A stretch of DNA of 64,000 nucleotides, taken from NCBI GenBank assembly GCA_020348925.1, contig CP070758.1:1072469-1136468 (forward strand). Reading direction: 5' to 3'. The stretch comes from Gemmatimonadota bacterium (lineage in GTDB: Bacteria; JBHIER01; G020348925). Position numbers and translations under genes: made by a program. Below, in pieces: positions 11,040 through 26,588 of the stretch (positions are counted from its first letter, which is position 1; every line of letters starts with the position of its first letter). The notes below the pieces were generated by a model. The model searched no databases, had not been told where the DNA came from, and worked only from the letters and a program-made list of their open reading frames with translations.

Positions 11040-11249
11040 CTATTCGGTTGACAGTTTCACACTCACTGCCTTGGGACCTTTGGTTCCCTTCTCAACATCG
11101 AATTGGACCTGTTGCTCTTCTTCCAATGAATCGAACTCTACATCTATCAGGTCTGTCTGATGGAAGAAAATCTCTCTGCCGTCTTCTGCACTGATGAAAC
11201 CATACCCGCGACCGCGAATCAGCGTCTTAATCGTTCCTTTCAAATCCAT
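11040..11249 (-). CDS. Cold-shock domain protein
   Basis: RNP1 GYGFI, RNP2 IFFH, C-terminal KGPKA; start may be 11252, 11249 or 11243. Confidence 0.9.
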   Translation of the reverse strand: MDLKGTIKTLIRGRGYGFISAEDGREIFFHQTDLIDVEFDSLEEEQQVQFDVEKGTKGPKAVSVKLSTE

Positions 11250-11353
11250 CACCCCCTTCCTTAGGTATCAGGAGTTCTTCACCCCGAAAGATCTCTGCTC
11301 GTTCCTCAGTCAATGCATAAGGTCCCGCAGAAAAATTAAACTTACGACAACTA

Positions 11354-11545
11354 TTAATTTCTGCCCCCGTTTTTCTGTCGTCGTAACTCTGCACACCGCC
11401 TGGCGATTTTTCTCTTCTCGCTGGGCTTGATAAAGTGCCTGGACCTTTGAGCATCCCGTAAAATACCAGATCGCTTTACCTGTGTTCGAAAACGACGCAG
11501 AACGCGATCGATAGGCTCACCAGGTTTCACCTTCACTTCTACCAT
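11354..11545 (-). CDS. rpsU: 30S ribosomal protein bS21
   Basis: EPIDRVLRRF..G.L....R.HF.KPSEKRK; start overlaps the stop of the upstream gene. Confidence 0.9.
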   Translation of the reverse strand: MVEVKVKPGEPIDRVLRRFRTQVKRSGILRDAQRSRHFIKPSEKRKIARRCAELRRQKNGGRN

Positions 11546-11745
11546 CGGTTATACCCACCTTGTCCACGAGGACTACGTCCGCTGCTCCGTCTTTCACCGC
11601 TCGTGTTCTGCCTCTTTCGAGCGTTGCGGCACGATTTACATCGCTTTGGATCCTGGAAACCTCTCTGGGTGTAATAGTTCTGTTCTTCCTCAGTGAACAT
11701 GAACTCCCTTCCACAGTCTTGACAGCTAATGGTTTTGTCCGCCAT
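11539..11745 (-). CDS. Zinc-ribbon (zf-trcl-like) protein with R/G-rich tail
   Basis: MADKTI.C.DCG.EF.FT.EEQ.YY..RGF..PKRC..CR; AAGAGAGG RBS. Confidence 0.88.
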   Translation of the reverse strand: MADKTISCQDCGREFMFTEEEQNYYTQRGFQDPKRCKSCRNARKRQNTSGERRSSGRSPRGQGGYNRW

Positions 11746-11975
11746 GAGATGATACCTCTCTTAAGATGAACGGTGAAACCCATGATTCAGTAAGATCACA
11801 ATTCAGGGAGTTACAATAATCACAATTCCAGGGAAAGTTCTGCGATTGTCTTTGATGGAAAATCAAAAAAGATTTTAACGACAGGCAAAAGTAAAATTTG
11901 AACATCGCGCCATCAAACAATTGTAAAGCACCTCACGATCCACTGGCAACATAGGCAGTATCTTGTACCGAATTG

Positions 11976-12005
11976 AATATAGATATGATCGAATATAAAA
12001 GTCAA
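11976..12005 (-). promoter_or_regulatory. Putative sigma70 promoter of the zinc-ribbon/rpsU/csp operon
   Basis: TTGACT-N18-TATATT; same hexamers and spacing as at 26315-26344. Confidence 0.6.
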
Positions 12006-12169
12006 GGTTAAAATCTGCAGAAGTGATCGCGACTTTTCCTTGCTTTCGTACAATCAAAATAATCATCGATTTCTTGAAATAACGAACGACTCGCAAGAAA
12101 CATGCACAACGAGCACCGCAGCCATTACATTGCGTAGAATACCTCAACAAATCGATACCCATCTACAGC

Positions 12170-14324: not shown

Positions 14325-14525
14325 CTATAACTTCACCACCTTCTCCGCCTTCAAACCCTTTGAGTCCTCAATGATCTCAAATTCGACTTTCTCACCCTCG
14401 TAGAGAGTTTTGAAACCCTCACTCTGAATAGCGGAATGGTGGACAAAGACATCATCTCCAGACTCCTGTCCAATGAACCCAAAACCTTTACGGTCATTGA
14501 ACCATTTTACATGTCCTACTGGCAT
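14325..14525 (-). CDS. Cold-shock protein (CspA family)
   Basis: G.VKWFN..KGFGFI..DVFVH.SAI...GFKTL.EG; AAAGGAGGTGA RBS. Confidence 0.95.
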
Positions 14526-14558
14526 CTATCTTTCACCTCCTTTCGTTTCAAATTTCGG

Positions 14559-14608
14559 TAAGAAAAAACGGACGATGATCGAATTTGCCTATCATCGTCC
14601 GTTTCTTT
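14559..14608 (-). terminator. Terminator-like hairpin in the csp 5' leader
   Basis: AAACGGACGATGAT/ATCATCGTCCGTTT 14-bp inverted repeat ending in TTTTTTCTT, ~35 nt upstream of the csp ATG. Confidence 0.6.
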
Positions 14609-14646
14609 ATCCGTCGATGTCCTTACACTTTTCGATAATCAACGCA

Positions 14647-14674
14647 AATGTACACCTTTTTTTCGAAAAGTCAA
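14647..14674 (-). promoter_or_regulatory. Putative sigma70 promoter of csp
   Basis: TTGACT-N16-TACATT. Confidence 0.5.
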
Positions 14675-25866: not shown

Positions 25867-26082
25867 CTACCGATTGTATCCACCACCTCCGCGAGGTCCA
25901 CGATGACCGCCCCGCCTATCCCCCCCCATTCCGCCCTTGGGATTCCTTCTCTTACGGGCCATCCGACACGATTTGCACCGTTTCGGATCTTGAAATCCCT
26001 TCTCGGCGTAATAGTTCTGCTCCTCCTCGGTAAAGACAAAGTCTTTATCGCAATCCTGACAAGTGATGGTCTTGTCCGCCAT
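25867..26082 (-). CDS. Zinc-ribbon (zf-trcl-like) protein with RGG tail, paralogue of 11539-11745
   Basis: MADKTITCQDC..F.FTEEEQNYY..GFQDPKRCKSCR; GGGAGG RBS. Confidence 0.88.
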   Translation of the reverse strand: MADKTITCQDCDKDFVFTEEEQNYYAEKGFQDPKRCKSCRMARKRRNPKGGMGGDRRGGHRGPRGGGGYNR

Positions 26083-26314
26083 GAGAAATACACCTCCCTC
26101 TTGGTAAAGAATAATGCCGTGGGCTCAGCGATCACTGCCTATGGAGTTACAAAAAACCGCAAAATGAGCGAAAGTTTGCGATTTGCCTATGATTAAAGGA
26201 CGTTGTGAAATCATGACGAAAATCAAAAGCAGAACTTAAACGCCGTGTAAACGGAAAATTGTACTTCACCTTTCGATCCACTGGCACCGCAGCCCCTTGG
26301 ATTCCTATAGATGA

Positions 26315-26344
26315 AATATACACGAAAACCAATCGAAAAGTCAA
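26315..26344 (-). promoter_or_regulatory. Putative sigma70 promoter of the second zinc-ribbon gene
   Basis: TTGACT-N18-TATATT. Confidence 0.6.
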
Positions 26345-26588
26345 GGATAAAATAACATGAAGAAAATGGCAAGCGATACAGAACGACGGTCGTTATCGGC
26401 GGTACATTCGAGCGTTCTCTCACTCAAACACAACTGACACATTGAAACAGAGTTTTCGGTTGACACCCACCGTCATTCTCCTTATTTTTAGTCTTCGCTT
26501 TGCAAGACTGTGTACGCAACAACGAAATGTGTGAACCACGCTTTTCGCCCAGTATAATCTGGGCGTTACATTATTTGATGGAGACAAC

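Follow-up and report, generated by a model that had tools for sequence, protein, structure and literature searches.

The two genes for zinc-ribbon proteins in the 64,000-nucleotide stretch of DNA analysed here (hereafter the window) are each preceded by a long leader, and the conserved islands of the two leaders are predicted to pair with each other as one nested, unbranched and imperfect hairpin. Orthologous leaders, which have the promoter, the leader length and the islands in common with those of the window, are found in three related uncultured bacteria (viz. the genome G001 and the metagenome loci L010 and L011), whose zinc-ribbon proteins are 68-83% identical over the domain. With somewhat better than even confidence, we interpret the element as a lineage-restricted, cis-acting structured mRNA leader, which would exert post-transcriptional control by means of this rod-like hairpin (the rod). 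The leader is absent from Rfam and from the literature that was searched, and it is probably a new RNA element of regulation. The features of the two copies, referred to as A and B, are as follows.

11976-12016, minus strand: promoter of copy A, an ATTTT..CC upstream element followed by TTGACT-N18-TATATT (10 of 12 matches)
11746-11975, minus strand: leader (5' UTR) of copy A, from the -10 hexamer to the ATG, 230 nt
11778-11956, minus strand: predicted long unbranched hairpin of copy A (columns 22-205 of alignment A3), with 33 of 40 cells paired and helix 6 largely broken
11919-11948, minus strand: 30-nt block of copy A, the 5' strand of helices 2-4, which pairs with 11786-11820 (islands UUGUAACUCC and GUGAUC..CUG)
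11886-11891, minus strand: conserved unpaired CUUUUG on the 5' side of the apex in copy A, with UUUUGAUUUUC nearby at 11858-11868
11755-11760, minus strand: Shine-Dalgarno (SD) sequence of copy A, GAGAGG, separated by about 20 nt from the 3' end of the hairpin and lying in the weak 5-bp helix 8
11539-11745, minus strand: zinc-ribbon gene A, zf_Tbcl (PF13451, E 5.1e-18), 68 aa with an RGG-type tail
11354-11545, minus strand: second S21 (bS21) paralogue (60.4 bits), whose start overlaps the stop of zinc-ribbon gene A
11040-11252, minus strand: divergent cold-shock-domain gene, the last gene of operon A
26315-26355, minus strand: promoter of copy B, ATTTT..CC followed by TTGACT-N18-TATATT (consensus promoter scan)
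26083-26314, minus strand: leader of copy B, from the -10 hexamer to the ATG
26116-26294, minus strand: predicted long hairpin of copy B (A3 columns 22-205), with 34 of 39 cells paired
26257-26286, minus strand: 30-nt block of copy B, the 5' strand of its long hairpin
26218-26229, minus strand: U-rich tract CUUUUGAUUUUC, a conserved unpaired run on the 5' side of the apex in copy B
26091-26098, minus strand: SD sequence GGGAGGUG of copy B, upstream of zinc-ribbon gene B
25867-26082, minus strand: zinc-ribbon gene B, zf_Tbcl (E 1.2e-19), 71 aa, with no S21 or csp gene after it

The promoter TTGACT-N18-TATATT, which the original prediction had placed upstream of both genes, is present exactly as described (12005-11976 for copy A and 26344-26315 for copy B, minus strand), and its measurements of the block were also borne out. 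The block begins 28 nt (A) or 29 nt (B) past the -10 hexamer, it is identical between the copies at 25 of 30 positions (the differing positions being UG/AA and CUU/AAG), and its end lies 174 nt (A) or 175 nt (B) from the ATG codons at 11745 and 26082. In all five leaders (viz. A, B, G001, L010 and L011) both promoter hexamers are identical, with a spacer that is only 22-56% identical, the ATTTT..CC element is found just 5' of the promoter, and the distance from the -10 hexamer to the ATG is 224-238 nt. This arrangement points to a sigma-70-type promoter, with a putative start of transcription that would leave about 225-235 nt as 5' UTR. The claim that further islands are shared in otherwise diverged sequence needs to be qualified: both copies have these islands, but UUUUGAUUUUC (11868-11858 in A and 26228-26218 in B) is off by about 21 alignment columns between them. 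The exact 13-mer TGCCAGTGGATCG has two copies in the window and three in the 5.04-Mb genome; however, because its chance control was run at up to 2 mismatches, where 1.79 occurrences are expected and 54 of 100 shuffles contained at least 2, this count proves nothing by itself. The homology of leaders A and B is shown instead by the alignment of the whole leaders, which are collinear throughout (56% identity over 230 columns), and by the occurrence of the same elements in the three other organisms.

The consensus fold was obtained with RNAalifold on the five leaders (alignment A3), which come from about four related organisms. The hairpin in this fold is about 180 nt long, with about 40 bp in seven helices and, at the apex, about 50 nt of variable sequence. 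The positions of its helices, in A3 columns, are given below.

Helix 1: 5' GCC (22-24) with 3' GGC (203-205)
Helix 2: 5' GCCAGUGGAUCG of the block (29-42) with 3' YGAUC..CUG.GC (185-200)
Helix 3: 5' 45-47 with 3' 177-179
Helix 4: 5' UACAA (53-57) with 3' UUGUA (167-171)
Helix 5: 5' 62-65 with 3' 159-161
Helix 6: 5' CGGCG (72-76) with 3' CGCUG (148-152)
Helix 7: 5' AAGUUCUGC (80-88) with 3' GCAAAACUU (138-146)

The local pairings proposed in the original prediction differ from this fold and did not survive the comparison with the orthologues. If the block folded upon itself as an AUC/GGU stem with a GNRA loop, then this stem would have to read AUC/GGC, with an A.C mismatch, in G001, L010 and L011, where only 12 of 15 cells pair and where the loop of L011 is AAAG. 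In the consensus fold the partner of the block is the long-range GUGAUC island, and the 'GNRA' nucleotides separate helix 2 from helix 3 as a small bulge. Similarly, the GGCG island, which had been proposed to pair with the 5' GCC, is paired in the consensus fold with a downstream CGCU instead. The broader claim of a structured leader of about 220 nt common to both paralogues does stand, as a hairpin leader of 224-238 nt is predicted in five sequences. The minimum free energy (MFE) folds of the single sequences recover the rod in A, B, L010 and L011, and the MFE fold of G001 is different in the 5' half. As z-scores, the single-sequence folds have the weak values of -0.78 (A), -0.64 (B) and -0.77 (G001), and L010 (-2.53) and L011 (-2.07) are no more than moderate.

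In the aligned leaders 89.2% of the 222 cells are paired, as compared to 37.8-52.1% when the partners are slid by 1-3 columns, and 10 of the 45 pairs have changed on both sides, as compared to 0-4 in the slid controls. The observed pairing, both-side changes and covariation score were matched by none of the 500 shuffles, but the measure of 'further pair types' was not significant, as its observed value was reached by 172 of 500 shuffles. Nine of the 45 pairs are invariant and most others vary on one side alone, and in copy A, where helix 6 is broken, 7 of the 40 cells are unpaired. Since the structure was derived from the same rows on which it was tested, a column-shuffle control and hold-out controls were added. 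Upon shuffling of the columns and refolding, the z-score was -3.39 and none of 300 shuffles was as low. When A and B were used for training, the structure paired 75 of 99 cells of the other three leaders (37-48% when slid), and in the reverse case, the structure trained on the outside leaders paired 71 of 92 cells in A and B (27-47% when slid). Due to the shared descent of the five sequences from about four related organisms, the counts of covariation are to be regarded as inflated. In a comparison of the two strands, 176 of 197 cells are paired in the sense orientation, including 25 G.U pairs, versus 158 of 197 (80%) in the antisense, and the columns that are invariant make up 34 of the 80 paired versus 16 of the 100 unpaired ones. 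The long hairpin, as a predicted structure, is moderately well supported.

That the original prediction did not recognise the leader as a known riboswitch agrees with our searches, as the whole window has no match at gathering thresholds (Rfam 15). At E values up to 10, leader A likewise has no match in Rfam 15 and leader B has just three antisense matches (14.7-17.1 bits, with thresholds of 50-75), and no sense-strand match was seen at permissive thresholds for the leaders of L003, L010 and L011. In the literature, the leader element was not found in a search of titles and abstracts, and no paper was found on PF13451 / zf-trcl. Matches to zf_Tbcl are present in 6 of the 41 genomes searched, of which only G001 is from the same family as this genome; the genome set includes just two species of this family and the others are related at the domain level at best. 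Of the relatives in metagenomes 139 were confirmed, and among the matches listed (80) the only close full-length ones are L010 (71%) and L011 (68%). In the genome collection 97 relatives were confirmed, and among the matches listed (80) the sole close one is again the contig of G001. A covariance model of the leader (R1; 190 positions, 37 pairs and no branch points), when searched against this genome and G001, found its training copies and no further copies. Against 157 distant zf_Tbcl loci the model found nothing credible, the best score (15.9 bits) and the others of this kind being partial, AT-rich matches to the variable apex. As far as sampled, the leader appears from these sequences to be restricted to one small lineage.

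This genome has exactly two zf_Tbcl paralogues, A and B. The S21 gene follows the zinc-ribbon gene, with stop and start overlapping, in A, G001 and L010, and judging by eye it apparently does so also in L011, where it is possibly frameshifted and where a canonical csp gene lies directly upstream of the locus. Among the distant zf_Tbcl genes an S21 gene comes next at 5 of 78 loci from metagenomes and at none of 79 from genomes, and cold-shock-domain genes within 1.5 kb are found at none of the 157 loci with either query. The presumed ancestral arrangement is a zinc-ribbon gene translationally coupled to a second S21 paralogue, and in this genome a Csp-like gene comes after them. Of the two S21 genes in the genome, the one in operon A scores lower (60.4 bits, as compared to 75 bits for that at C1:3921456), and the cold-shock-domain protein of operon A, with 62 bits against a CspA-E cut-off of 120, is far under every CspA-E cut-off. 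The lower-scoring S21 together with the divergent cold-shock-domain protein suggests a specialised ribosome-associated stress module. The genome also has five canonical csp genes, one of which (14328-14525 of the window) is about 2.5 kb from the locus, and the link of the leader to cold shock is circumstantial. An arginine/glycine-rich tail, with the ending GGYNRW or YNR, is present in all five zinc-ribbon proteins compared (viz. A and B of the window, L003, L010 and L011), and a composition of this kind is typical of RNA-binding tails. Among PDB sequences the zinc-ribbon protein has no significant match (best E 0.19) and thus no related solved structure, and in NCBIfam the only match is below threshold (17.5 bits versus a cut-off of 45). 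At four-fold sites, of which only about 10 could be compared, the identity with the G001 orthologue is 0.70 for copy B, which has lost S21, and 0.30 for copy A; due to this, copy A appears, on this small number of sites, to be the faster-evolving paralogue, and yet it is copy A that retains the ancestral linkage to S21.

In the interpretation that we favour, the rod heads an operon for a zinc-ribbon/RGG protein, a second S21 and a Csp-like protein, and either the stability or the translation of the mRNA would be set post-transcriptionally. The double-stranded rod may serve as a substrate for RNase III-type processing; helices 2-4 together have 21 pairs with small bulges between them, the criterion for RNase III being about two turns of near-continuous double-stranded RNA. 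Alternatively, Csp proteins or the RNA-binding proteins that are encoded downstream may use the rod as a platform, in which case they would bind at the apex to the U-rich tract, which is conserved and unpaired, and thereby feed back on expression, as in the cspA leader of S. aureus. The conserved unpaired runs of the leaders are short and U-rich (viz. CUUUU(U)G at the apex, UUUU and UUU), and of the eight genomic copies of the 11-mer TTTTGATTTTC, three are in the leaders of zfA, zfB and csp3. Autoregulation is hinted at, indirectly, by the RGG-type tail and by the sequence of the stem, which, given its many invariant paired columns, is conserved beyond the needs of pairing. A riboswitch is not indicated by the helices, terminators and unpaired runs examined: R1 is devoid of branch points, neither leader has a terminator-like site, and the unpaired runs are short and U-rich.

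The system to which the leader can best be compared is the S. aureus cspA mRNA, for which it is reported that cleavage of a 5' UTR hairpin by RNase III makes the mRNA more stable and better translated, and that CspA binds to a U-rich motif in this hairpin of its own 5' UTR and opposes the effect of RNase III (PMC5815144). Both cases involve a stem-loop in the 5' UTR of an mRNA for a small nucleic-acid-binding stress protein and a U-rich tract, RNase III is encoded in this genome (247.7 bits), and by analogy a similar feedback is plausible here. However, the S. aureus element, at about 50 nt (-95 to -45; PMC5815144), is much shorter than the hairpin of about 180 nt and seven helices described here, the two have no similarity in sequence, and the gene in our case is zf_Tbcl and not csp. 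It is thus from the anatomy of the leader and the analogy to the S. aureus cspA leader that feedback mediated by a protein or an RNase is favoured, and the mechanism that we infer for this operon of putative cold-shock type is control by a protein or by RNase III.

The alternative that survives best, and which we regard as possible but on the unlikely side, is a thermoswitch independent of protein, in line with one of the two roles that the original prediction had proposed. According to this explanation the leader has two folds, the balance or the rate of refolding between which would depend on temperature as in leaders of the cspA type, and the block would pair either long-range, giving the rod, or locally with a U-rich tract about 40 nt downstream. 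In the local helix, formed by A3 columns 40-55 and 82-95, 60 of 69 cells pair, as compared to 29-39 of 67-69 when slid, its column pair 48/87 is U-A, U.G and, in three leaders, C-G, and the helix is formed by the isolated 5' half in B, G001 and L011 and also in the full MFE fold of G001. The link of the zinc-ribbon genes to csp genes, and the SD-burying hairpins on the zf_Tbcl leaders of L119, L137, L026, L046 and L081, also speak in its favour. However, the rod is more stable than the split folds by 12-20 kcal/mol in all five leaders, and in duplex energy the local helix clearly surpasses shuffled partners in L010 alone, where 5 of 500 were as good; in B, G001 and L011, with 39-55 of 500, the difference is marginal, and in A, with 408 of 500, the helix is no better than they are. 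Further, neither of the two folds contains the strong SD sequence, which lies outside the rod, the main hairpin ending about 20 nt 5' of it, and in all five leaders the predicted probability that the SD is unpaired (0.14-0.36 by partition-function folding) stays level between 5 and 45 C. Due to this flat accessibility and the position of the SD outside the large hairpin, a simple melting thermometer is without positive in-silico support, and since the hairpin leaves the SD out, it is not obvious how it would control translation. The predicted partners of the SD are local and differ between the sequences; helix 8, which covers half of the SD, is paired in 88% of cells, with both-side changes in two of its five pairs. 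The CUCC/UCCC pyrimidine island on the 3' strand, which by eye is complementary to the SD, was rejected as its partner, having no weight in the partition function. The local helix between the block and the U-rich tract may be at most a co-transcriptional intermediate.

Two known kinds of leader bear on the question of temperature. The E. coli cspA thermoregulator (RF01766) and its cold box resemble our case in the conservation of a long leader between paralogues, in a strong promoter whose upstream element is AT-rich and in an association with cold-shock genes, and here a U-rich box is in common with a csp leader of the same genome; they differ in that the E. coli RNA has a multi-hairpin fold that includes the start region, whereas here there is a single rod, with the SD outside it and no predicted effect of temperature. 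The S. aureus cspB and cspC mRNAs reportedly have thermoswitches, in which, as possibly here, two alternative pairings may compete for one strand. It was also observed that distant zf_Tbcl genes (viz. the metagenome loci L026, L046 and L081 and the Dehalococcoidia-type genome contigs L119 and L137) have shorter leaders of about 110-130 nt, in which, unlike in the rod leader, an upstream strand (e.g. CGACGACC or GGAUGGCC) pairs across the SD and the start codon. These leaders belong to the same protein family, are structured and may likewise have a strand that can pair in two ways, but they differ from the rod leader in their length and in the hairpin over the SD and AUG, and they are among those in which R1 finds nothing credible.

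It is also conceivable, though we regard it as rather improbable, that the rod is specifically the platform of the zf_Tbcl/RGG protein, as a member of an RNA-binding family not characterised before, which together with an alternative bS21 and the Csp-like protein would form a self-regulating module for the remodelling of ribosomes under cold or stress, the leader being switched by these chaperone-like proteins between the co-transcriptional local fold and the rod. That the leader is the site at which the bS21 paralogue, acting alone, represses its own operon is very unlikely. The position of S21 after the zinc-ribbon gene in operon A and its counterparts, and the two S21 genes in the genome, agree with this explanation, and for a bS21 paralogue of Francisella the leader is described as sufficient for repression by bS21 (PMC13374519). 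However, copy B has the whole leader and no S21 gene after it, the leader tracks the zinc-ribbon gene, and it is due to copy B that a circuit based on S21 only is considered unlikely. The leaders of Francisella rpsU2 (PMC13374519) and of the Flavobacterium rpsU SD circuit (PMC9976891) are similar to ours in that they head an operon with an extra S21 paralogue, and they differ in that copy B here is without S21 and that SD use is general in this genome. An SD-like word, most often at about -13 to -9, is present at -18 to -4 of 39.8% of 3169 crude ORF starts, as compared to 12.3% for a control interval, and based on this result ribosomes of the SD-blind Bacteroidia type, with an S21/SD circuit, were ruled out.

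If the block were conserved as a signal in the DNA, either as a second promoter (TTGCCA/GTGCCA-N18-TACAAT) or as an operator, then its conservation would serve transcription. The consensus scan indeed finds the block to be promoter-like in both copies, copy A having 10 and copy B having 9 of 12 matches, and a minor start site at the block is possible in this genome. However, the would-be -10 hexamer, TACAAT in A and B, is changed to GACAAT in G001, AGCAAT in L010 and AACAGG in L011, and helix 4 is paired in 100% of cells, with changes on both sides in two of its five pairs, so that the changes in the block are matched in its partner. As the '-10' is not kept in the orthologues and the changes are matched in the partner island, the block is better explained as conserved for RNA pairing. 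The G.U pairs of the sense strand also speak for RNA rather than for a symmetry of the DNA, and the arms, at about 145 nt apart, are unlike those of an operator, which makes a DNA-level signal highly improbable. Lastly, that the leaders are a functionless and unevenly decayed remnant of the gene duplication, as the paralogy of the window copies and their modest overall leader identity might suggest, is scarcely tenable when the islands, promoter and spacing are retained in the three other organisms despite the divergence of their proteins, and when stem columns of A and B are 0.76 identical versus 0.30 for four-fold sites (n=10) and 0.22 for the 45 nt upstream of the promoter element, which contradicts the uniform decay that the original prediction had named as evidence of neutrality. 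Identity between A and B is 0.36 at third codon positions, 0.50 in the promoter spacer and 0.43 at the apex of the hairpin. Since the identity at synonymous and flanking sites is at a random level, in comparison to that in the stem columns, the duplication is inferred to be old and the islands to be under purifying selection.

In E. coli, the leader hairpins of rpsO-pnp and rnc are processed by RNase III. Like the rod, these hairpins are long and imperfect and belong to the leader of an operon that is cold-induced or related to ribosomes; the rod is not homologous to them. In cyanobacteria, rpsU-rbpA1 forms a cold operon.

If functional, the rod leader would represent a structured leader RNA not described before, from a bacterial lineage that has hardly been sampled, and it would also provide a first functional handle on the widespread and uncharacterised zf_Tbcl proteins, tying them to S21 paralogues, Csp and post-transcriptional control. 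The rod leader, together with the differing SD-burying leaders in other phyla, suggests that zf_Tbcl genes may generally be under control at the RNA level, like the classical cold-shock genes.

A separate observation concerns four of the canonical csp genes, which have a common leader of about 125 nt (14526-14674 of the window, minus strand, and upstream of 4004169, 1270967 and 1557134 on C1). Its promoter, CTTGACTTT..GTACATT, is called at 14674-14647, and a 5'-proximal motif (U)GAUUUUCGAAA is present. The csp leader in the window has no Rfam match at gathering thresholds, and a terminator scan of the csp leader found none, its loop of about 11 nt exceeding the limit of the scan. By eye, these leaders have a long perfect hairpin followed by a U-run, resembling an attenuator, and the csp leader of L011 looks alike.
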